Numbered from the stretch's first letter, positions 1,268-28,104 are shown. The stretch: DNA of 64,000 nucleotides from Acidobacteriota bacterium (GCA_965217775.1 CBDCJH010000002.1:2752001-2816000); one strand, 5' to 3'. Numbers and translations are program-made. Notes: generated from the sequence alone by a model not told the origin.

Positions 1268-1576
1268 ATGAAGGAACCCAAGAAGGTCTTCCGGCCTCTG
1301 ACGGTTCAACAGTTCCGCGAATTGGTCGAGGCGGTGGACAACCCCTACCTGCAAGCCATGGTTGCGGTTATCGGCGGGACGGGGATTCGGAAAGGTGAAA
1401 CCTTGTCACTCACCTGGAAACGCGTGGACCTGAGTCGTCGGCTGCTGTGGGTGGAATTCACCAAGGACGACGAGGGAGATTCCGCAGTTCCCATGCGCTT
1501 GCCTGCATACGGGAGGCACAGGCGAACGAAGACACACAAACAAACCAGGCAACGGGTAGGAATCAGGGAGCAATGA
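1268..1576 (+). pseudogene. int: Tyrosine integrase remnant (element copy 1)
   Basis: TGIRKGETLSLTWKRVDL Box I motif; KEPKKVFRPLTVQQFR matches the integrase at 19729-20562; N-terminus and most of the C-terminus deleted. Confidence 0.85.
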
Positions 1577-1621
1577 TTCAAGCGGAGAATTAGGATAACC
1601 TGTTGAAAAGAAAGGACCAAT

Positions 1622-1668
1622 CCCGTAGCTCAGTTGGACAGAGCAACGGATTTCCAATCGCCGCTCCC
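1622..1668 (+). other. att junction: tRNA 5' half fused to half of a REP
   Basis: CCCGTAGCTCAGTTGGACAGAGCAACG (acceptor/D-arm like), core GATTTCCAATC at 1649-1659, then GCCGCTCCC REP arm; no T arm or 3' half. Confidence 0.8.
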
Positions 1669-11475: not shown

Positions 11476-12891
11476 ATGTCAGGTGCAGCAGGATCGTTGA
11501 GCAGACCACTTGTTGCGAGCGTTCTCGCACTTACCCTGGCTTGTGCCGCGTGCGGTGAACCGGCTGAGGTTCTTGTGGGCAAGGAGCTTCTTGTCCTCGA
11601 AGGGGCCACTCTGATTGACGGAACCGGTGCCGGACCGCGCGAGGACAGCGTCATCGTGGTGGACGGCGACCGAATCATCAGGGTCGGAAGCGCGGGTGAT
11701 TTCCATTTCCCCGACTCGGCACGGCAAAGAGACGTTTCGGGCCACTTCGTGCTGCCGGGATTCATCGACATGCATGTCCATGTTCACCCCAAGGCTCGGA
11801 TCGAGACCGTGGAGGCGTTGCTTGAGTTCGGAGTGACCACGATACGCAGCCCGGGCGCCGCGCAAAGCGCCGGAGTCGAGCTCCGGGATCAGATCGAGGC
11901 GGGCCGGGTTCGGGGGCCGCGGATGATGACCGGCGCCGCCTTCATCGACGGTTCTCCGAGCCGATTCGACTGGACGGTGCCCGTGGCGACACCGGATGAG
12001 ATCCGGGACGTGGTTCGACAACAGGCTGCGGCGGGTGCCGACATGATCAAGCTGTACTGGGACGTGACCCCGGAGCTGACGGCCGCTGCGATTGAAGAGG
12101 CCCACAAGCTCGGTCTGAGGGTCGCCGGCCACCTCCGGGCGACGAGCTGGACCCAGGCGGCAAGACTGGGAATCGATGCCCTGGTCCACAGCGGTGCAGA
12201 GGGACCGACCTGGGAGCTGGTCCCCGAAAGGCACCGGGCCCAACTGAGGGCGCTGCCCTACCCGGAGTTCTACGCCCGTTGGCTCGAGTTGGTGGAGCTT
12301 GACGGCGATCTGATGAGTTCCTTGATTACTGCCCTCGTTGACAACAACGTGACGGTCGACCCGACTCTGGTCGTGATGGAGAGCCTCTACTTCGGTGACG
12401 ACCCGAAGGTTCTCGAGCGGCTCGAGCCGCAGCGGGCTCCGTCCTCGGTGGTCTCGCTTTGGGGTTCGGACTGGCGGCAGCGAAACCCGTTTGTTTTCAC
12501 CAACCCCATGGGAATCGCTCGGGACTTCACGTCCGGCAAGCCCGTATTCCCCGTCGCACTCCAGATCGTGCGGAGGCTTCATGAGGGGGGAGTGAGGCTG
12601 ACCGCAGGGAGCGACCTGGGAATGCCCTGGATCACGCCGGGCGTGAGCCTGCATCGGGAGCTAGAGCTCCTGGTCCAGGCCGGCATCGACGAGGCTGACG
12701 TGATCGTCATGGCGACCCGAAACGGCGCCGAGGGCCTGGGTCTGGAGGATCAGCTCGGAACCGTCGAAGCAGGGAAACTGGCCGACCTGGTCGTGCTCTC
12801 GGCGGATCCACTGTTGGACATCCGCAACACCCGCTCGGTGGCCGCCGTCTACAAGGCTGGCGAACTCCAGTATCAAGCCACGCCACTTTGA
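11476..12891 (+). CDS. Amidohydrolase-family lipoprotein (copy 1)
   Basis: LPGFIDMHVH, GADMIK and GTVEAGKLADLVVL motifs; lipobox. Confidence 0.9.
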   Translation: MSGAAGSLSRPLVASVLALTLACAACGEPAEVLVGKELLVLEGATLIDGTGAGPREDSVIVVDGDRIIRVGSAGDFHFPDSARQRDVSGHFVLPGFIDMHVHVHPKARIETVEALLEFGVTTIRSPGAAQSAGVELRDQIEAGRVRGPRMMTGAAFIDGSPSRFDWTVPVATPDEIRDVVRQQAAAGADMIKLYWDVTPELTAAAIEEAHKLGLRVAGHLRATSWTQAARLGIDALVHSGAEGPTWELVPERHRAQLRALPYPEFYARWLELVELDGDLMSSLITALVDNNVTVDPTLVVMESLYFGDDPKVLERLEPQRAPSSVVSLWGSDWRQRNPFVFTNPMGIARDFTSGKPVFPVALQIVRRLHEGGVRLTAGSDLGMPWITPGVSLHRELELLVQAGIDEADVIVMATRNGAEGLGLEDQLGTVEAGKLADLVVLSADPLLDIRNTRSVAAVYKAGELQYQATPL

Positions 12892-12926
12892 AACGGGCGC
12901 TGATGGTGATGCCCGGTAGAAAAAGG

Positions 12927-13015
12927 GTAGGAGCGGCGGTTTCCTAACCGCCGGCTTCCGGAGTGTCCGGGAACGAACGCGTATCGTGGGCGACGGGTTA
13001 TCGCCCTTCCTTTTT
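12927..13015. repeat. REP family 1a pair, empty homologue of the 19585 integration site
   Basis: GTAGGAGCGGCGGTTTCCTAACCGCC and GGGCGA-CGGGTTA-TCGCCC; context matches 19498-19595. Confidence 0.7.
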
Positions 13016-13044
13016 CTTAGAGGGGGACAGGAATGTCCCCCCTC

Positions 13045-14019
13045 CTACCGGACGGCCAGCTTCGCAATCGGGATTCGCAGGAAGAACAAACCCGGTCCTC
13101 CCTCCTGATCTTTGTCGATGTCGTAAAAGACCACGCCGATTGTTTTATCGTCGAGTTGCACCGTTCGGGGACAGGCCCGGCCGTTGATCGCCCGGCCCGG
13201 GTTGTAGTACTCAAACACGCCATCCCATGTCTGCCCGTCGTCGTATGAAAGACGATAGCGGATGCGCTCCCCGCCAAAGCCGGGCCCGAGAATCTCCGAG
13301 GCCAGCAGCCAGCCGTTTTTCAGACCGACCATTTCGTGCCGCCAGCCCTGCGAGCTGATGTCCGGAAAGCCTTCGATGGTCTTCCACGTCTTGCCGTTGT
13401 CCGTTGATCGGATGCCGGCGCCGCTGACGAACGTGCCTCTCGGAGTCTGCACAATCGGGATCAACCCATGCATACGGCCATCGCCGAACGGTGTTGCTTT
13501 GGAAGTGGCCGGATCAAACACGAACGTCCGGTCTATCAACGACACGAGCCATTGCTCTGACTTCAGTTCGGTAATGGGGTGCCGGATGACGGATCTGACT
13601 TCGGGATCACGCGGGAATGGCTGCGGGTCGCTCCACGATACTCCGTCGTCATTCGACAGTGAGTACAAGACAGACCGTGGTTCTTTCTGAGTGACCGGCG
13701 TATCCCAGCGGTTCCAGCAATGCAACAGGCGGCCGTCGCTCAGTGTCGTCAGCGAGCCCGGGTAATACGTCTTATCGACGGTATGGACGAACGGCACAGG
13801 TTCGGACCATTTCATTCCTCCGTCCGACGATCGAGTGATGCGCAGGTCCACGTGATTCACCCGCCCGTACGTCACAACGATCGTCCCCGAGCGGGTGACA
13901 CAGGCCGCCGGGTGAATGTGCCCGTCGACCGGGACAGCAACCCGGACCGGTTTCAGTTGATGGTCGCTCGCGACGACCGTTGACACAGCGAATAAAGACA
14001 GCACGGCGAGTCGGTTCAT
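13045..14019 (-). CDS. Secreted sialidase-fold (BNR/Asp-box) protein (copy 1)
   Basis: Signal peptide; Asp boxes SSDGGMKW, SNDDGVSW, STDNGKTW and SYDDGQTW. Confidence 0.85.
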   Translation of the reverse strand: MNRLAVLSLFAVSTVVASDHQLKPVRVAVPVDGHIHPAACVTRSGTIVVTYGRVNHVDLRITRSSDGGMKWSEPVPFVHTVDKTYYPGSLTTLSDGRLLHCWNRWDTPVTQKEPRSVLYSLSNDDGVSWSDPQPFPRDPEVRSVIRHPITELKSEQWLVSLIDRTFVFDPATSKATPFGDGRMHGLIPIVQTPRGTFVSGAGIRSTDNGKTWKTIEGFPDISSQGWRHEMVGLKNGWLLASEILGPGFGGERIRYRLSYDDGQTWDGVFEYYNPGRAINGRACPRTVQLDDKTIGVVFYDIDKDQEGGPGLFFLRIPIAKLAVR

Positions 14020-18084: not shown

Positions 18085-19497
18085 ATGTCAGGAGCAGCAG
18101 GATTGCTGAGCAGACCTTCTATTGCGATCGCTCTCGCACTTACGCTGGCTTGTGCCGCGTGCGGTGAACCAGCCGAGGTGCTTGTGGGCGAGCGGCTTCT
18201 TGTCCTGGAAGGAGCCACTCTGATTGACGGCACCGGCACCGAACCGCGCGAGGACAGTGCCATCGTGGTGGACGGCGACCGAATCCTCAGGGTCGGCAAC
18301 ACCGGTGAATTCCATTTCCCCGACACGGCACGACGAAGAGAGGTTTCGGGCCACTTCGTGCTTCCAGGATTCATCGACATGCATGTCCATGTTCACCCCG
18401 AGGCTCGGATCGAGACCGTGGAGGCGTTGCTCGAGTTCGGAGTGACCACGATACGCAGCCCGGGCGCCGCTCAAAGCGCCGGCGTCGAGCTCCGGGATCA
18501 GATCGAGGCGGGCCAGGTTCGCGGTCCGCGGATGATTAGCGGCGCCGCTTTCATCAACGGGTCTCCTCGATTCGATTGGACGGTAGCCGTGGAGACGCCG
18601 GATGAGATCCGGGACGTGGTTCGACAACAGGCTGCGGCGGGCGCAGACATGATCAAGCTGTACTGGGACGTGACCCCGGAGCTGATGGCCGCTGCCATCG
18701 AAGAGGCCCACAGGCTGGGTCTGACGGTCGCCGGCCACCTTCGGGCAACGAGCTGGACCCAGGCGGCGCGAATGGGAATCGACGCCTTGCTCCACAGCGG
18801 CGCGGAAGGGCCGACCTGGGAGCTGGTCCCCGAAAGGTACCGGGCCCTACTGCGGGCACTACCCTATCGGGAGTTCTACGCCCGTTGGATCGAGTTGGTG
18901 GAGCTGGACGGCGAACTGATGAGCTCCTTGATCGCCGCTCTCGTTGCCAACAACGTGACGGTCGACCCGACTCTGGTCGCGATGGAAAGCCTCCACTTCG
19001 GTGACGACCCTAAGGTTCTCGAACGGCTCGAGCCTCAGCGGGCTCCGCCCGCGGTCGTCTCGCTTTGGGGTCCGGATTGGCAGGAGCGAAACCCGTTCGT
19101 CTTCACCAACCCGATGGGAGTCGTGCGGAACCTCACGTCCGGCAAGGACGTATTCCCCGTCGCACTCCAGATCGTGCGGAGGCTTCACGAGGGGGGAGTG
19201 AGGCTGACTGCAGGAACCGACGTGGGAACGCCCTGGATCACGCCGGGCGTGAGCCTGCATCGGGAGCTGGAGCTTCTGGTTCAGGCCGGCATCGACGAGG
19301 CTGACGTGATCGTCACGGCGACCCGAAACGGCGCCGAGGGCCTGGGTCTGGAGGACAGGCTCGGAACCGTCGAAGCCGGGAACCTGGCCGACCTGGTCGT
19401 ACTCTCGGCGGATCCGCTGTCGGACATCCGCAACACCCGTTCGGTGACCTCCGTTTACAAGGCCGGCGAACTCGTGTATCCGGCCGCGCCACCTTGA
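18085..19497 (+). CDS. Amidohydrolase-family lipoprotein (copy 2)
   Basis: Diverged paralogue of 11476-12891. Confidence 0.9.
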   Translation: MSGAAGLLSRPSIAIALALTLACAACGEPAEVLVGERLLVLEGATLIDGTGTEPREDSAIVVDGDRILRVGNTGEFHFPDTARRREVSGHFVLPGFIDMHVHVHPEARIETVEALLEFGVTTIRSPGAAQSAGVELRDQIEAGQVRGPRMISGAAFINGSPRFDWTVAVETPDEIRDVVRQQAAAGADMIKLYWDVTPELMAAAIEEAHRLGLTVAGHLRATSWTQAARMGIDALLHSGAEGPTWELVPERYRALLRALPYREFYARWIELVELDGELMSSLIAALVANNVTVDPTLVAMESLHFGDDPKVLERLEPQRAPPAVVSLWGPDWQERNPFVFTNPMGVVRNLTSGKDVFPVALQIVRRLHEGGVRLTAGTDVGTPWITPGVSLHRELELLVQAGIDEADVIVTATRNGAEGLGLEDRLGTVEAGNLADLVVLSADPLSDIRNTRSVTSVYKAGELVYPAAPP

Positions 19498-19595
19498 AAC
19501 GGGCGCTTATGGTGACACCCGGTAGAAAAAGGGCAAGCGGCGGTTTCCAACCGCCGAACTCCGGTGGAGCATTGAGGAATGGGCGACTGGAAGTC

Positions 19596-19616
19596 CGTTG
19601 CTCCGTCCAACTGAGA
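19596..19616 (-). other. tRNA 5'-half remnant in the att junction
   Basis: Minus strand TCTCAGTTGGACGGAGCAACG followed by GACTTCCAGTC; homologous to 1628-1659. Confidence 0.75.
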
Positions 19617-19728
19617 TAAGGTATAGATCCTTTATTTTCAACAGTTTATCCCATTTCTTAGGTCTAATCACTTTCCCTTTTTTGCTGCCCGTTGCCGGTT
19701 TGTTGCCTGTTGCGTTTGTGAGTCTTCG

Positions 19729-20562
19729 TTAGCCTGTGCCTCCCGAATGCTCTGGAGCGCATGCGAACTGACGTACCCCGCATACCGCATCGTCGTGCTG
19801 ATCGCCGAGTGCCCCATCAACTTCTGCACCGTTCTCACGTCCACCCCCTAGCATCAGCCAATGGCAGCAGAGGAATCGTCTCAGATCGGGAAAACCGACT
19901 TTCAACCCCACCTTCTCGGCAGCGCGACGCAACAGTTTGTCGGGAGTCACCCATCTCGTTCCCGTCCGGCTGTTGACGAAGACGTGTGGCGTGTTCAGGT
20001 AGCGAACCAGCCCGACCAGGTCGCGGAACTGCTGAACCGTTAGAGGCTGGAAGGCCTTCTTCGGCTCCTTCAGTTTGGGAAACCGCACCAGCGGGTGCGT
20101 ATCGATCTCCCCACACTCCAGCGCGTAGCAAAACAGCTTGCTGATGGCGGCGATGGCGCGGTTCACCGTGGCCAGTTTGACCTGTTTCTTTCTCTGGGCG
20201 ACGTAGCGGTGCAGGTCTTTGCGTTGGAACTCCTTCAGGGAAATGTTGCCCAGCACGGCGTTGAGCCTCTTGAACGAGAGCGAATAGCGGCGCAAGGAGC
20301 GCAATCGAGGTTTGCAATACTCCTCGATAAATCGCTCGTAGAAACTCCGGACCGTCCAGATCGTGCGGTTTCCTCCGGCGAATTCCCGCTTGAGCTGCTT
20401 CCAGGTGCCGTCCAGGATGCTGGACTCCACCCGAGTTTGGAGCGCCTGTGCGCTCCGGTAGTTGGGGGCGTACTTTCTGAGCCGACGGGATCCGTTCGGC
20501 CAGTACTTGCTGACGACGTATCGTCTCCTCCCCTGGCGATCCTTCACCTTATAGATGCCCAT
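19729..20562 (-). pseudogene. int: Tyrosine integrase (element copy 2), inactivated
   Basis: Arm-binding-like N-terminus; ATVNRAIAAISKLF; Box I deleted; PDLRR in place of HxLR; frameshift before VQKLMGHSAISTTMRY. Confidence 0.85.
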
Positions 20563-20955
20563 GCATCTCCTCCTTTCTGGATCCGGGTTCTTCGCCGTGG
20601 GGCGAATCGTACCAAGGCTCCAGAGAGAAACGGCGAATCTCTATTCTTTCCTGCGGGAAGTCCGTTAATTTCGGCTAACGGACAGACGAGGACGCCGGGC
20701 CCGGACCTTCACCACGAGGCCAGGCGAGACGCGCCCGATCCCCAAGCAGAAGTCTGCCCAAGCGGGCGCGCCCCACCAGGGGAGCGGGACCCGGTATCCT
20801 TCTTGAAAAGAAAACCCTTTGCAAAATCAGTTGGTGGACCTGCAGTCCGGGCGACGGTCGGGCCGCCGGCATCCTCCAGATCCGGTGCCGGGACCCCGGC
20901 GGCTGGCTTTTTTCTCGAGGAGTCGGCTTCGTAGTCTCCGAGGGAAGGAGATGCC

Positions 20956-22080
20956 ATGAGAATGAGAAACGGCGGCTGCGGCCTCCGAGGAGTTAGGGAA
21001 GCGGGTCTGGTGGCGCTTTTGTTGGTCTCGGCAACGGCTGTGAATGGACAATGGCTGTCCGTTTCGGATTTCGAGCGCTTCCAATTTTACAACGCCTGTC
21101 GCCCCATGGGACTGAGGAGTCACAGCGGCGGGTCGATCGATGCCGGCGCGGATGCCGGCACGTTGGAACATGAGGACGGACGGCCAGGAATGAATCTGGA
21201 TCCCATTGTGGACGTCGCCAAAAGCCGCTTGCGCGCAGAGCGCCTCTACTCATTGTTGGAAAGCGAGTCGAACGGGGCGGCCCTGGTGGTTTCCGTCGAT
21301 GTCAGGGCAGTTTCCCGCGACCTCGTGGCGTATGCCATCGGTCTCGAATACCACAAGCTCGTCACCGATGCCGCCAGCGGACTGGAGAAACTGACGGCCA
21401 CGTGGCGCAACAACTCGATCGTGTGCTGCGACCCCCTCGATCCCGAAAGCATCAGCGAACATCTCGCCCGCGGCCACCTCGATTTCTTCCTGGAGAAGTA
21501 CCGGCAAGTGAACGAGGAGGATTGCCGCCCGCCCTCATTGACGGCCACTGGACGGCTTTCCTGTGCTGGACAGTGGAGCGGCACGGAGTGCTGGATGGAG
21601 TTGTCCAACGTGCCCGGGTGCTACGTCTGGAGTGCTGCTCGCCTGCCGGAGCAGACTGTGACCTGGACGGGCGAGTGTGGCGGGGAACTCGCCCAAGCTC
21701 AGGGAACCCTCAAATGGGCCTGGGATCGGGGCCGGGGCGAGGAGACCGCCGAAGAGACCGGGCATCTGCGGGCCGGCAAGAAGTGGCGCGGCCAGTGGAT
21801 CAGGCGCTACGGGAACGGAACCGTCCACGAAGGGGAGGTTGTAGAGGGGAAGCGGCACGGACGGTGGGTCATTCGACGTGCGGATGGAGCCGTCGTCGAA
21901 GGCTCGTATGTGGAGGGCAAGCGGCACGGCCAGTGGGTCACTCGGCACAAGTCCGGCAAGCGAGAAGTGGTCACCTACAAACACGGCTGGCAAGGCAAAT
22001 CGACCAAGATTCCTGATGAGGACCCCAAAGAGGTCGAAGTCGATGAGAACACGCCGAGGGACGTGGATGGGGATAGGTGA
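20956..22080 (+). CDS. Secreted protein with MORN-like C-terminal repeats
   Basis: Signal peptide; repeated EG.(V/Y)VEGKRHG.W motifs; TWTGEC motif. Confidence 0.75.
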   Translation: MRMRNGGCGLRGVREAGLVALLLVSATAVNGQWLSVSDFERFQFYNACRPMGLRSHSGGSIDAGADAGTLEHEDGRPGMNLDPIVDVAKSRLRAERLYSLLESESNGAALVVSVDVRAVSRDLVAYAIGLEYHKLVTDAASGLEKLTATWRNNSIVCCDPLDPESISEHLARGHLDFFLEKYRQVNEEDCRPPSLTATGRLSCAGQWSGTECWMELSNVPGCYVWSAARLPEQTVTWTGECGGELAQAQGTLKWAWDRGRGEETAEETGHLRAGKKWRGQWIRRYGNGTVHEGEVVEGKRHGRWVIRRADGAVVEGSYVEGKRHGQWVTRHKSGKREVVTYKHGWQGKSTKIPDEDPKEVEVDENTPRDVDGDR

Positions 22081-22099
22081 GGGGAAGAGGAAGGGAGTG

Positions 22100-22196
22100 G
22101 CGCGATTTTATGAAGTCCTTCTTGTCCAAGAGCTCCATCGCATTTTCGAAGAGGGCCTTGTCCGGTGCGATGGTCTCCTCCCGGAGTTCCGCCCCC
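22100..22196 (-). pseudogene. Possible bamD N-terminal fragment
   Basis: PDKALFENAMELLDKKDFIKSR resembles the first BamD TPR (recalled, not searched). Confidence 0.4.
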
Positions 22197-22315
22197 TGTG
22201 GCTCAAGCGGCGTCTGAGGGCCGCCAGCTTGCCGGAGATTATCTCGCCGCACTCGTTCCACGTGTTGGTGGTCACGGATCAGCTCAGCCAGAACCTGCTG
22301 CTTGAGGACATCTAA
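22197..22315 (+). pseudogene. XerC/D-like recombinase C-terminal fragment
   Basis: LKRRLRAASLPEIISPHSFHV...LLLEDI; homologous to 25023-25100. Confidence 0.7.
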
Positions 22316-22585
22316 TACCTAGGAGCCTGCGCGGCAGAAATTAATCTACTGCGAAAGCGTAGAATCGGTCCATATTTCCCCGATTTCTCGGCGAATAGAA
22401 CAACTATGCACCTCCAAATCGTGAAAATCTGGCCTCGATTCTCCACTTTCTCGCTACGATCATTTCTACCGCGCAGACTCCAAGCCAACCACGCTTGCCC
22501 CCGATCCACTCTGAAGTCTTTGTACAGACCGCAGAGGGAGGGGGAGGTGGGACCATGTTTGCTACAATTCGGTTAAATCATTCCG

Positions 22586-23116
22586 GTGAACCGATCCAAT
22601 GAAGGGGGCGAAGTTCGATCCGTGAAAAAGTCCTCTGTCGAGATCTATGGGTTGGCCGTCTGCTTCGTTACGCTACTTTGTTTCATCATCGCCCTGGGAG
22701 TCGGTCTCTATGACCTGCTTCAGCTCGCCTACCCCGAGTTCACCCTGAATGCTTACGAGTACGAACGGCACCGGTCCAATGACTCATTCCGCGATTCACC
22801 TCGATCTGTGTCCTACGTTCAATGGTCGACTCCACCTGTCCGTGGGACAAGCCCGGACGATGGAAAAACCTATAGGGTCACTCACAGAGGAGTTCCAACG
22901 GTGCCGCAAGGAGGGCCGGAAATTACCGAGGATGAGACCACTCGAAGGCGGAAGGAGAGCTACCGTAGCGTGCTCCGAGTCGAACGCAGACACGCCCGCC
23001 AAAGTCTGGCGTTGGTGGGCATCGTGATGTTGATCGACGTTCTGGTTTTCCTTCCGCACTGGATCTTGGCGCGGCGACCAAGGGTATCGAGATATGACGG
23101 CAGACGTGTCCCGTAG
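22586..23116 (+). CDS. Hypothetical two-TM membrane protein
   Basis: EIYGLAVCFVTLLC...YPEFTL and a C-terminal TM ending in HW. Confidence 0.7.
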   Translation: MNRSNEGGEVRSVKKSSVEIYGLAVCFVTLLCFIIALGVGLYDLLQLAYPEFTLNAYEYERHRSNDSFRDSPRSVSYVQWSTPPVRGTSPDDGKTYRVTHRGVPTVPQGGPEITEDETTRRRKESYRSVLRVERRHARQSLALVGIVMLIDVLVFLPHWILARRPRVSRYDGRRVP

Positions 23117-23690
23117 CTTGATGTTTTTGCTGTTGTTCGGCGCGACGAGCGCCTCGGTTCACAATCAGGACCGCTGGAACGTCGCGGACGAGGAGATCGT
23201 GCGCTTGGCGCCCGCAGCATTCGAGGAGGTTCCACCGGCCATTCGGAAGACACTTTCCGACCAAGGCTGCTCGATCCCTCAGACCTGGGGCAACACAGGT
23301 CCGGGCTCGATCCCTCCGCCCTACGACCGGCCTCACAACGTCGTCTCAGGCGAGTTCATGGAAGCCGGACGAACGCAGTGGGCCGCGCTCTGCTCTCGGA
23401 ATCGATCATCAGCGATTGTTGTGATTGATAAGAACGGCCGAATCCGGGCCGAATTCGCATCCGCCCCGGACAGGAGTTATTTGCAAGGTATCGGGGGCGA
23501 AAAGATCGGCTATTCGCGTGCGTTGAGCCCGGCCGGGGCTGATTACATCCTGTCAGTCTACCAGGCCTACGGAGGACCGAAGCCGCCACCGATCGAGCAT
23601 CAAGGCATCGATGATGCCTTTCTTGAAAAGGCCTCCACGGTGCACTACTTCCACGAAGGAATGTGGCTGCGGTTGACTGGTGCGGACTGA
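23094..23690 (+). CDS. Hypothetical secreted protein
   Basis: Signal peptide; overlaps the upstream gene. Confidence 0.7.
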   Translation: MTADVSRSLMFLLLFGATSASVHNQDRWNVADEEIVRLAPAAFEEVPPAIRKTLSDQGCSIPQTWGNTGPGSIPPPYDRPHNVVSGEFMEAGRTQWAALCSRNRSSAIVVIDKNGRIRAEFASAPDRSYLQGIGGEKIGYSRALSPAGADYILSVYQAYGGPKPPPIEHQGIDDAFLEKASTVHYFHEGMWLRLTGAD

Positions 23691-23835
23691 GCCAGCGAGA
23701 CATCCCCTTTCCCGCCCCGTTGAACTGGCCGGGCGCTCCATTCGAGATCACGACTCGCCAGGACGACTCTTGGACATCGCGTGCCTGCGAACTCTATTCT
23801 GGAGTTTGTCCCCGGGAAGGGACTGTCTCATGGCA

Positions 23836-23873
23836 CACTCGTCGTTATGTTGAATGCCACATAACGACGAGTG
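23836..23873. repeat. Perfect 15-bp inverted repeat with TTATGT/ACATAA cores
   Basis: CACTCGTCGTTATGT-8 nt-ACATAACGACGAGTG. Confidence 0.85.
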
Positions 23874-24190
23874 GGTCAGGGTTCGAGCGTTGCCCTGCGG
23901 TGCTGGCCAAAGATAGACACAGCGCAAACACCATGTGTTCCGAACCTGGGGAACAAGAGAAAATGGGAAGAGTGAGTCAGCTTTCGAGAGCCGATGCTAC
24001 TGCCTGTTTGTTGCCTGTTCAGGATGTCGAACGTTGGGAGTCAACCACTTGACCGATTCGGCCACGAATCCGGTAAATGAATGAAAACGTTAACCTTCGG
24101 TAGTTATTGACTGTGGGGCAGTCGGGACTGGAAGTCGCCCCTCGTAGCCAAGGCACCGACCCATAGTCCGAAGCTGACGGCGTCGCTGCT

Positions 24191-24748
24191 CTACGGTTGT
24201 AGCTTCGCAATCGGGATCCGCAGGAAGAACACGCCCGGTCCTCCCTCCTGATCTTTGTCGATGTCGTAAAAAACCACGCCGATCGTCTTGTCGTCGAGTT
24301 GCACTGTTCGGGGACAGGCCCGGCCGTGGATCGCCCGGCCCGGGTTGTAGTACTCGAACACGCCATCCCATGTCTGCCCGTCGTCGTATGAGATGCGATA
24401 GCGGATGCGCTCCCCGCCAAAGCCGGGTCCAAGAATCTCCGAGGCCAGCAGCCAGCCGTTTTTCAGACCGACCATTTCGTGCCGCCAGCCCTGCGTGCTG
24501 ATGTCCGGAAAGCCGTCGATGGCCTTCCACGTCTTGGCGTTGTCCGTTGATCGGAGGCCGGCACCGCTGACGAACGTGCCTCGCGGAGTCTGCACGATCG
24601 GGATCAACCCGTGATCACGGCCATCGCCGAACGGTGTTGCTTTGGTAGTGACCGGGTCAAACACAAACGTCCGGTCGATCAACGACACGAGCCATTGCCC
24701 TGAGTTCAGTTCGGTAACGGGGTGTCTGATGACGGATCTGACTTCGGG
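24191..24748 (-). pseudogene. 3' part of the sialidase-fold gene (copy 2)
   Basis: Matches 27133-27690; 5' end replaced by a recombinase remnant. Confidence 0.9.
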
Positions 24749-25102
24749 GCGGCACGACTGGGCGGTCCTGGGGACGCTCATCCATACGGGCGCCCGGGTC
24801 GAGGCTGTCTTCCGACTCCGGATCCAGGATCTGCGGGATCACGGCAACCACCGGGTGCTGCAGTTTGCGGAAAAAGGAGGAAAGGTCCGGGAGATCTCCG
24901 TGCACCGCGACCTGGACGAATAGCTCGCTGGCGGGCCCAAGGACTCGGGGCCGTTTCGCGCCGGCCAGGGGCGCGACCGTCCCCTCACCGGTGAGTCCCT
25001 GACGCCTCACGCCCTCGAGCGCATGCTCAGGCGGCGCCTGGCCACCGCCGGGTTGCCGGAGAATCTCTCGTCGCACTCCTTTCGGGTCCTGGTAGTCACA
25101 GA
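24749..25102 (+). pseudogene. XerC/D-like tyrosine recombinase remnant
   Basis: HTGARVEA, EKGGKVREI and LSSHSFRV motifs, with an internal stop and frameshift. Confidence 0.8.
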
Positions 25103-26846: not shown

Positions 26847-26961
26847 AATCAGGGAGTCGGGCGCAGGGTATAGCCTCCGATAAAGGGAACTATGCGGGTC
26901 TGTCCGGTAAGGCGGATCGGAAACGAGGAAGGGTGTGTCGGCGTTCAGGAACCGATTCTGC

Positions 26962-27107
26962 TGCCTGTTTGTTGCCTGTTCAGAACGTCAAACATAGCGA
27001 GTCAACTACTTTACCGATTTGGCGAAGAACCCGGACAACATTGAAAACGTTAACGTTCGGTAGTTGTTGACTGTGGCACAGTCGGGAAGGAAAGTCCCCC
27101 CCTCCTA
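26962..27107. mobile_element. Right end (att junction) of a third REP-targeting element
   Basis: About 135 bp homologous to 24001-24136, fused to the half REP GTCCCCCCCTCCTA. Confidence 0.8.
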
Positions 27108-27132
27108 ACCCGATGCTGACGGTGTCGCTGCT

Positions 27133-28104
27133 CTACGGCTCCAGCTTCACAATCGGGATTCGCAGGAAGAACACACCCGGTCCTCCCTCCTGATCTTTGT
27201 CGATGTCGTAAAAGACCACGCCGATTGTCTTGTCGTCGAGCTGCACTGTTCGGGGACAGGCCCGGCCGTTGATCGCCCGGCCAGGGTTGTAGTACTCAAA
27301 CACGCCATCCCATGTCTGCCCGTCGTCGTATGAGATGCGATAGCGGATGCGCTCACCGCCAAAGCCTGGTCCGAGAATCTCCGACGCCAGCAGCCAGCCG
27401 TTTTTCAGACCGACCATTTCGTGCCGCCAGCCCTGCGTGCTGATGTCGGGAAAGCCGTCGATGGCCTTCCACGTCTTGCCGTTGTCCGTTGATCGGAGGC
27501 CGGCACCGCTGACGAACGTGCCTCGCGGGGTCTGCACGATCGGGATCAACCCGTGATCACGGCCATCGCCGAACGGTGTTGCTTTGGAAGTGGCCGGATC
27601 AAACACAAACGTCCGGTCGATCAACGACGTGAGCCATTGCCCTGAGTTCAGTTCGGTAACGGGGTGCCTGATGACGGATCTGACTTCGGGATCACGCGGG
27701 AATGGTTGCGGGTCGCTCCAGGATACTCCTTCGTCACTCGACAGGGAGTACAAGACAGACCGTGGTTCTTTCTGAGTGACCGGCGTATCCCAGCGGTTCC
27801 AGCAATGCACCAGGCGGCCGTCGCTCAGCGTCGTCAGCGAGCCCGGGTAGTAGGTCTTGTCGACAGTATGGACAAAGGGAACTGGCTCGGACCATGTCAT
27901 TCCTCCGTCCGACGATCGAGTGATGCGCAGGTCCACGTGATTCACTCGCCCGTACGTCACAACGATGGTCCCCGAGCGGGTGACACAGGCCGCCGGGTGA
28001 ATGTGCCCGTCGACCGGGACGGCAATCCGGACCGGTTTCAGTTGATGGTCGCTCGCGACGACCGTTGACACAGCGAATAAAGACAGCACGGCGAGTCGGT
28101 TCAT
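27133..28104 (-). CDS. Secreted sialidase-fold protein (copy 3)
   Basis: Full paralogue of 13045-14019. Confidence 0.85.
   Translation of the reverse strand: MNRLAVLSLFAVSTVVASDHQLKPVRIAVPVDGHIHPAACVTRSGTIVVTYGRVNHVDLRITRSSDGGMTWSEPVPFVHTVDKTYYPGSLTTLSDGRLVHCWNRWDTPVTQKEPRSVLYSLSSDEGVSWSDPQPFPRDPEVRSVIRHPVTELNSGQWLTSLIDRTFVFDPATSKATPFGDGRDHGLIPIVQTPRGTFVSGAGLRSTDNGKTWKAIDGFPDISTQGWRHEMVGLKNGWLLASEILGPGFGGERIRYRISYDDGQTWDGVFEYYNPGRAINGRACPRTVQLDDKTIGVVFYDIDKDQEGGPGVFFLRIPIVKLEP

Follow-up and report, generated by a model that had tools for sequence, protein, structure and literature searches.

The window analysed here is a 64,000-nt stretch of an Acidobacteriota bacterium genome (GCA_965217775.1, CBDCJH010000002.1:2752001-2816000; the genome is G000 below). 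At 19596-24136 it carries E1, a decayed element of 4541 bp that contains a tyrosine integrase pseudogene and three cargo open reading frames (ORFs), and that lies between the two halves of a repetitive extragenic palindromic (REP) hairpin. Comparison with relatives suggests that E1 belongs to a family of integrative elements whose lambda-like tyrosine integrase uses REP hairpins as attB, a reading to which we would give a probability of about 85%.

E1 and the hairpin it interrupts

The sequence GACTGGAAGTC is directly repeated at 19585-19595 and 24126-24136, and these are its sole two matches in the window at up to one mismatch. Shuffled sequences give a mean of 1.59 matches at the same threshold, and at least two in 48 of 100 shuffles. 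The repeat by itself is within chance; it is the context that makes it real, because the surrounding flanks rebuild a REP hairpin. When the outer flanks (GGGC... and ...GCCCC) are joined by script they form a 19-nt hairpin, for which the genome holds elsewhere one exact copy, 53 hits at up to one mismatch and 132 at up to three (both strands of this near-palindrome are counted, so copies are fewer than hits).

An earlier note, made from the sequence alone, had described this locus as an integrase element in a REP loop, naming the direct repeat, the hairpin restored by the joined flanks, a partner REP, tandem arm-type repeats in one orientation inside both ends, sites resembling the consensus of the integration host factor (IHF), and an integrase just inside the left end. 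These landmarks were all recovered, the partner hairpin at 19538-19556 and the arm repeats at 19686-19711 and 24001-24019. The two IHF-like 13-mers (19636-19648 and 24039-24051) lie in conserved blocks and fit what we take to be the IHF consensus at 12 of 13 positions each. The integrase has the position that was claimed for it but is a pseudogene. The 11-bp repeat is likewise present, but the crossover region is best taken to be just the loop, 7 nt long, of a hairpin with a 5-bp stem, with the neighbouring GA and TC making up the remaining bases of the repeat.

The target is a REP family, that is, a short imperfect palindrome at high copy number. A census of perfect hairpins with a 5-bp stem and a 7-nt loop across the 6.43-Mb genome places GGCGA-loop-TCGCC and GGCGG-loop-CCGCC far above all others; the top groups have the loops YTGGAAA or their complements, with 27 to 56 copies per individual variant. 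The pattern GGCGAYTGGAARTCGCC (GGCGA-YTGGAAR-TCGCC) occurs in 86 exact copies in G000 and in 66-86 copies in each of four relatives, and its reversed control in none. A unit of about 70 bp that includes the partner hairpin recurs at many places in G000 and in relatives, so the REPs appear to come as inverted doublets; such a doublet is found at the site of E1 and at that of its sister E2 (below). Run on the whole genome, ARAGORN calls several REP hairpins tRNA-Gly(tcc) or tRNA-Ser(gga), an independent sign that REPs look like anticodon arms. The automatic tRNA count of G000 is inflated by these pseudo-genes. ARAGORN found no tRNA in the window, and the idea that the flanks of E1 conceal one was dropped. 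G000 also has three matches to the Y1_Tnp (IS200/IS605-type) domain (C2:5635604, 4665981 and 2626245), which could be REP-associated transposases; a GGCGA-type REP lies 65 nt from one of them and about 1 kb from another, with none within 1.5 kb of the third.

Aligned with an intact homologue, the integrase of E1 covers residues 1-186, 237-303 and 303-361. About 50 residues (~187-236), including Arg204 and Lys229, are missing, there is a frameshift near residue 303, and His289, the histidine of HxxR, is replaced by proline. The C-terminal piece scores 23.6 bits against Pfam Phage_integrase, under the cut-off of 27.1. As read from its coding sequence, E1 is a dead, non-autonomous remnant with a presumably inactive integrase, and it would be movable at most by the intact integrase of E2. 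Since genome G007 carries E1 with the same integrase deletion, E1 is old.

E2 is the second element in G000 (C2:798848-821297, about 22 kb; loci L001, L002 and L158) and occupies another REP loop. Its integrase is intact (361 aa), and the ends of the two elements share 87-92% identity. The direct repeat of E2, GATTGGAAATC, is flanked by GGGC and GCCC, which places this element in the commonest REP variant. As cargo E2 carries an EcoRI-like adenine methyltransferase interrupted by a DDE transposase, together with a GmrSD_N-HNH endonuclease, an IS1595 transposase, and one protein each of the DinB_2 and DUF4145 types. It also contains, 1.8 kb from its end, a further right end that is truncated.

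Relatives, junctions and empty sites

A search with the intact integrase gave 52 loci, with matches in 26 of 41 related genomes; G004 alone has 29 and G005 has 17, next to 30 and 27 right ends respectively. L056-L060 were dropped as duplicates of counted loci. The close clade consists of 35 full-length integrases that are about 87-100% identical to the intact copy. All 35 were labelled as REP users and none adjoins a tRNA 3' half, although kin are not independent, and separate events will have been fewer than such counts suggest. In 34 of them the element end that resembles half a tRNA is followed by a 7-nt loop and then by the 3' arm of a REP; the remaining one, L020, is cut short by the end of its record and owes its label to the right junction. 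The REP arm at the left junctions is of TCGCC type in 11 cases, TCCCC in 17 and CCCCC in seven. Outside the 35 are partial integrases next to REP-type arms (L039, L041, L042 and L049) and one next to tRNA-Arg (L044). Integrase fragments (L045-L047, L050-L054) and integrases cut by another insertion (L038, L043) were left unclassified.

The two ends of an element can be compared at 11 loci where a right end lies within 3 kb. At nine of these the element measures 2.7-4.1 kb, its 11-bp repeat is exact, and 5-7 bp of pairing is possible between the host arms; with E1 and E2 this makes 11 complete elements with an exact repeat and complementary host arms. Thirty of 32 aligned right ends run into a loop and a C-rich arm, one into something else and one into a 25-nt remnant of a left end. 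At L115 (G005:C1:409320-412458) the loop CTGGAAA connects the right end directly with some 25 nt of a left end, an attP-like junction in the chromosome, and unrelated sequence follows. Insertions of the GGCGA class were never found in the equally common GGCGG-type hairpin (0/11 left and 0/8 right junctions, copies that are not independent of each other).

Uninterrupted sites are found in relatives. In G006 the site of E1 is empty, with both flanks and an intact REP, GGGCGACTGGAAATCGCCCC, at the exact position. Three relatives (G006, G007 and G003) lack E2 and keep an intact GGGGCGATTTCCAATCGCCC at its site, and G008 likewise has GGGGACTGTTAGTCCCC intact at the empty site of L017, a 2.7-kb element of G004. 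The earlier note had proposed that an integrase family uses a multicopy extragenic repeat as attB, and had named the flanks of integrase homologues and an uninterrupted REP in relatives as the places to look; on both counts the relatives bear it out. It had also contrasted this integrase with those that use tRNA genes. The REP target agrees with that contrast, but the implied lack of relationship does not, since the clade is nested among tRNA-Arg(TCT) integrases.

The ends of the elements are built like attP arms. The TGCCNGTT arm repeats lie in both arms of E1 in the same orientation and are at least 90% conserved per column (32 right ends, 38 left ends). In the far arm, three blocks reach at least 90% conservation per column across the 32 right ends: TGCCTGTTTGTTGCCTGTT, AGTCAACCACTTT and an inverted repeat TTACCG...CGGTAA. 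In the integrase-side arm a matching AACAGGCAACAAACAGGCA block is conserved across the 38 left ends, inside the 3' coding end of the integrase. Apart from the arm repeats, the two element ends are unlike each other.

The intact sister integrase (P0001) scores 94.1 bits against Pfam PF00589, Phage_integrase (cut-off 27.1), and the catalytic set R204, K229, H289, R292, H315 and Y324 (RKHRHY) is invariant in 14 aligned integrases. An AlphaFold2 model (mean pLDDT 84.5) predicts that residues 3-51 (pLDDT 80-90) form three strands and a helix, and its best full-length Foldseek match is full-length lambda Int (TM 0.62 over 343 columns); IntI4 and Tn1549 Int are also among the structural matches. The likeness to lambda Int would extend to the three-domain build, the RKHRHY residues, and the arm-type repeats and IHF-like sites in both attP arms. 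The differences are a sequence identity of about 18%, a multicopy attB, and the lack of a recognisable excisionase gene in the small elements, where none was found.

Codon comparison shows the integrase to be under selection: the median dN/dS is 0.14 (range 0.06-0.25) at a median dS of 0.33, over 463 pairs of 31 clade integrases. It is the only ORF kept in every small (2.7-kb) element. Copies in G004 that sit at different REP sites can be nearly or fully identical (L017 and L020, one mismatch in 2719 bp; L021 and L022, 0/1936; L026 and L030, 0/2254), and in each pair the identity ends at the junction.

Table 1 Features of E1 and of related remnants in the window (positions counted from the first letter of the window).
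Feature	Position	Strand	Remarks
Remnant of another family copy	1268-1665	+	Integrase fragment, tRNA-half end, loop TTTCCAA, host arm TCGCCG
Partner REP hairpin CGGCGGTTTCCAACCGCCG	19538-19556		GGCGG-type arms, loop TTTCCAA; inverted doublet with the interrupted REP
Left junction	19581-19595	+	Host REP 5' arm GGGCGA 19581-19586; 7-nt overlap CTGGAAG 19587-19593; 11-bp repeat 19585-19595
Element end with remnant of tRNA-Arg(TCT) 5' half	19594-19630	-	D-arm and 5' anticodon stem; acceptor strand decayed
IHF-consensus-like site, integrase-side arm	19636-19648	+	Inside conserved block; predicted
Integrase pseudogene	19668-20562	-	ORF pieces 19729-20562 and 19668-19844
Arm-type repeats TGCCCGTT, TGCCGGTT, TGCCTGTT	19686-19711	+	Within integrase 3' coding end; conserved in 38 aligned left ends
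Cargo ORF, 374 aa	20956-22080	+	Without Pfam family
Miniature repeat, 167 bp, inserted in E1	22318-22485		More than 50 genome copies
Overlapping pair of cargo ORFs (176 and 198 aa)	22586-23690	+	Without Pfam family
Arm-type repeats TGCCTGTT (two), far arm	24001-24019	+	Orientation as in left arm; at least 90% per-column conservation, 32 right ends
IHF-consensus-like site, far arm	24039-24051	+	Inside highly conserved block; predicted
Right junction	24121-24141	+	Core arm GTCGGGA; overlap CTGGAAG 24128-24134; repeat 24126-24136; host REP 3' arm TCGCCCC 24135-24141
Solo right end of a further copy	26945-27095	+	Ends ...CGGGA-AGGAAAG-TCCCCCCC; adjoins paralogue of a gene flanking E1

A Pfam scan gave no family for the three cargo ORFs of E1 or for the downstream gene at 24191-24781, and so lends nothing to the label 'sialidase' that the earlier note had given the latter. 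Three paralogous copies of that gene stand near one another in the window (12094-13605, 18700-24800 and 26927-27690), two of them preceded by an amidohydrolase paralogue. Of the three paralogous junctions one is empty, one holds E1 and one a solo right end. The first of these (12891-13047) had been called an empty counterpart of the E1 site; it does lack an element, but its REPs are different variants. At a paralogous junction between the amidohydrolase and the downstream gene, L082 (G004) and L080 (G008) carry roughly 1 kb of inserted DNA that contains two small ORFs and whose end faintly resembles the right end of the element. The 167-bp miniature repeat within E1 has terminal inverted repeats and is 90-99% identical to its copies in the genome, and its summed contig depth is very high in four public runs.

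Descent from tRNA-Arg integrases

On the integrase side, the element end reads like a tRNA 5' half, with D-arm, 5' anticodon stem and loop, and in E1 this end is homologous to the complete tRNA-Arg genes that stand beside sister integrases. A complete tRNA-Arg(TCT) occupies the same position at L040 (G003, 85% identity) and L061 (about 72%), and a complete tRNA-Arg(TCG) at L062 (about 71%); the partial locus L044 (85% over its segment) again has tRNA-Arg(TCT) there. The G003 locus is a 47-kb island with the full tRNA beside the integrase and a 42-nt fragment of its 5' part (100% identical) at the far end. The right end that follows this fragment is 77% identical to that of E1, arm repeats included. 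Homologues at 37-50% identity lie on the 3' side of tRNA-Arg or tRNA-Leu genes.

In a quick maximum-likelihood tree, with Shimodaira-Hasegawa-like approximate likelihood ratio (SH-aLRT) values as its only supports, the 35 REP users group together (SH-aLRT 93), with L040 as sister; L061 and L062 come next (98 and 99), followed by the 3'-side tRNA users. The sequence comparisons thus show that the REP-using clade is nested among tRNA-Arg(TCT) anticodon-loop integrases and descends from tRNA targeting. The REP loops TTTCTAA, TTTCTAG and TTTCCAA are one to three changes from the tRNA loop CTTCTAA. In our reading the REP hairpin, with its 5-bp stem and 7-nt loop, mimics the anticodon stem-loop. At G010:C21:314386-322467 a tRNA-Arg that stands beside a 71%-identical integrase is matched, 7 kb downstream, by a 3' fragment, and another piece of integrase is close by; this single tRNA gene seems to be in use on both its sides.

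The ancestral state is a known minority type among genomic islands, since the Islander report lists 2083 islands with an anticodon-centred attP and a 5' fragment in 159 of 3919 (PMC4383910). The elements described here share with these anticodon-loop tDNA islands a protein lineage (sisters at 71-85% identity), the att arms and, in G003, the 42-nt 5' fragment. They differ in that the target is a repeated, apparently extragenic hairpin, no tRNA is restored, and a genome can hold up to 29 matches instead of one per site. A restored tRNA gene with a displaced fragment is found in sisters such as G003, and is absent from E1, E2 and the 35 clade members.

Mechanism, alternatives and significance

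From the junctions we infer that recombination takes place at the REPs, and we propose the following route. The attP core (CGGGA, the 7-nt overlap, TCCGT) would derive from the tRNA-Arg(TCT) anticodon stem-loop, and a REP such as GGCGA-YTGGAAR-TCGCC would offer the same geometry of inverted 5-bp arms around 7 nt. The N-terminal domain of the integrase would bind the arm-type TGCCTGTT repeats in both attP arms, and its other two domains the core arms. With the assistance of a host bending protein the attP core would pair with the REP, strands would be exchanged at the two loop edges, and the REP would be split into two halves with a copy of the loop after each. The repeat reads as 11 bp because the GA and TC beside the 7-nt loop are common to attP and REP. 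Loop identity may guide the choice of REP variant and of orientation. The switch from a single tRNA gene to a repeat family would have provided many landing sites, and the 2.7-kb integrase-only elements could have reached their roughly 30 copies in one related genome in this way.

It is possible, although we put it slightly below an even chance, that the clade escaped the one-site limit by moving to REPs, that the 2.7-kb elements, reduced to an integrase with its att arms, act as an insertion sequence driven by a tyrosine recombinase and sustained by the REPs of the host, and that the 7-nt loop of attP sets REP variant and orientation and could be reset by changing seven bases.

Several observations weigh against the proposal that the family integrates at REPs in this manner. 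(i) All genomes are metagenome-assembled, and G000 has a marker-gene contamination of 7.5%. (ii) The integrase of E1, the copy in the window itself, is dead. (iii) The repeats of L042 and L049 differ by one base. (iv) Elements with the loop CTGTTAG do not separate on the integrase tree from those with CTAACAG, its reverse complement (five changes each), so a strict rule of overlap identity needs extra events. (v) About 1.4 kb of the 2.7-kb elements lacks a convincing ORF (no frame stands out in eight copies); L005 and L017, both of this size, gave no Rfam match at gathering score. (vi) The variant GGGGACTGTTAGTCCCC has eight intact copies in G004, set against 26 near-matches of three junction types. 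Its sites there appear to be mostly occupied, and it is called a REP by way of relatives (for example 98 hits at up to one mismatch in G005, 97 of them GGGGACTTTTAGTCCCC). (vii) The three Y1_Tnp matches do not establish a link between these REPs and REP-associated tyrosine transposases. (viii) No circular attP or excision product was seen, and no contig joins 19595 to 24137, in the four public runs examined (X19, X20, X22 and X24 of 24 matched), all of them short Logan contigs. One X22 contig (depth 6.3, side 42) joins 19615 to 24076; it agrees with neither form and could stem from a relative, and nothing is concluded from these runs.

Points (iii) and (iv) are what would be expected if the elements behaved like the transposons of Tn916/CTnDOT type, with identity needed only beside the cut sites and each move able to change the loop of the element. 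Tn916, Tn1549 and CTnDOT tolerate unlike overlap sequences and have loose targets and, like the present elements, they are tyrosine recombinases inserting at many sites. The outer CT...AG is common to CTGTTAG and CTAACAG, and the family uses many loop variants. Against this reading, 11 of the 13 pairs compared have identical repeats, whereas heterologous overlaps should often leave unlike copies at the two ends. The targets are defined hairpins, and the mixing on the tree could equally stem from recombination between copies. We consider this alternative unlikely.

A rather improbable alternative is that what the integrase recognises in the REP is not a duplex with two half-sites but a cruciform or a hairpin folded from a single strand, in the way that attC is recognised by integron integrases. 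IntI acting on attC, as in the Vibrio cholerae repeats, is a tyrosine recombinase that serves a large family of imperfect palindromes, with shape taking precedence over sequence. The REP targets likewise keep a constant stem-loop shape while their sequence varies (GGCGA, GGGGA and GGGGG stems, several loops), and ARAGORN takes them for anticodon arms. IntI is without an arm-binding domain, its substrates are folded single strands, and the cassettes that it mobilises lack the enzyme, whereas here the enzyme travels with the element, has a predicted lambda-like three-domain build and is accompanied by conserved arm-type repeats in both attP arms. The ancestors use a duplex tRNA gene, and the exactness of the repeat in those same 11 of 13 pairs is as expected of exchange across a duplex overlap.

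That the integrase is still specific for tRNA-Arg, with the REP insertions being rare secondary-site accidents, is very improbable: sister lineages (71-85% identity) do lie in tRNA-Arg and the REP loops are only one to three bases from CTTCTAA, but the clade integrases stand at REPs in 35 of 35 cases and at a tRNA 3' half in none, and the tRNA-Arg(TCT) genes of G000 and G004 have no family integrase match beside them. It is hardly credible at all that the DNA owes its movement not to its integrase but to a DDE transposase, to a HUH transposase associated with REPs, or to REPs recombining with one another. The three Y1_Tnp-domain matches and the repeated REPs that could recombine might be adduced for this, but against it stand an integrase that is the only ORF kept in every small element, ends that are the same att arms as in the tRNA-integrated island, base-precise junctions at unrelated sites and empty sites that are restored REPs.

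We retain the reading of E1 as a decayed member of a REP-targeting, lambda-like integrase family. Transposition into REP-like repeats has precedents of another kind. IS1397 inserts in the loop of a palindromic unit. To our knowledge no insertion-sequence family uses a tyrosine recombinase. REPs are a specific target of insertion sequences of the IS3 family (such as ISPsy8) and the IS110 family (ISPa11, ISPpu9 and ISPpu10) (PMC1525189). These elements move by DDE or DEDD transposases; in ours a tyrosine recombinase is the sole conserved gene and the ends are att arms rather than inverted repeats, with neither a DDE/DEDD transposase nor terminal inverted repeats in the 2.7-kb elements. No tyrosine integrase using REPs was found described in open-access papers and preprints; supplementary tables, outside that search, could hold cases.

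Site-specific integrases are thought to be tied to one or a few chromosomal sites. The family described here would be a lambda-type integrase lineage whose attachment site is now a family of repeats, and all stages of the shift from tRNA to REP would be visible in living relatives: a 47-kb tRNA island, REP islands with cargo, and integrase-only elements at about 30 per genome. It would represent a case of integrase specificity evolving through structural mimicry of an anticodon stem-loop, with REPs contributing to genome plasticity in a new way. The target of such an integrase may be set by a short hairpin, which could serve as a tool if the 7-nt rule holds.

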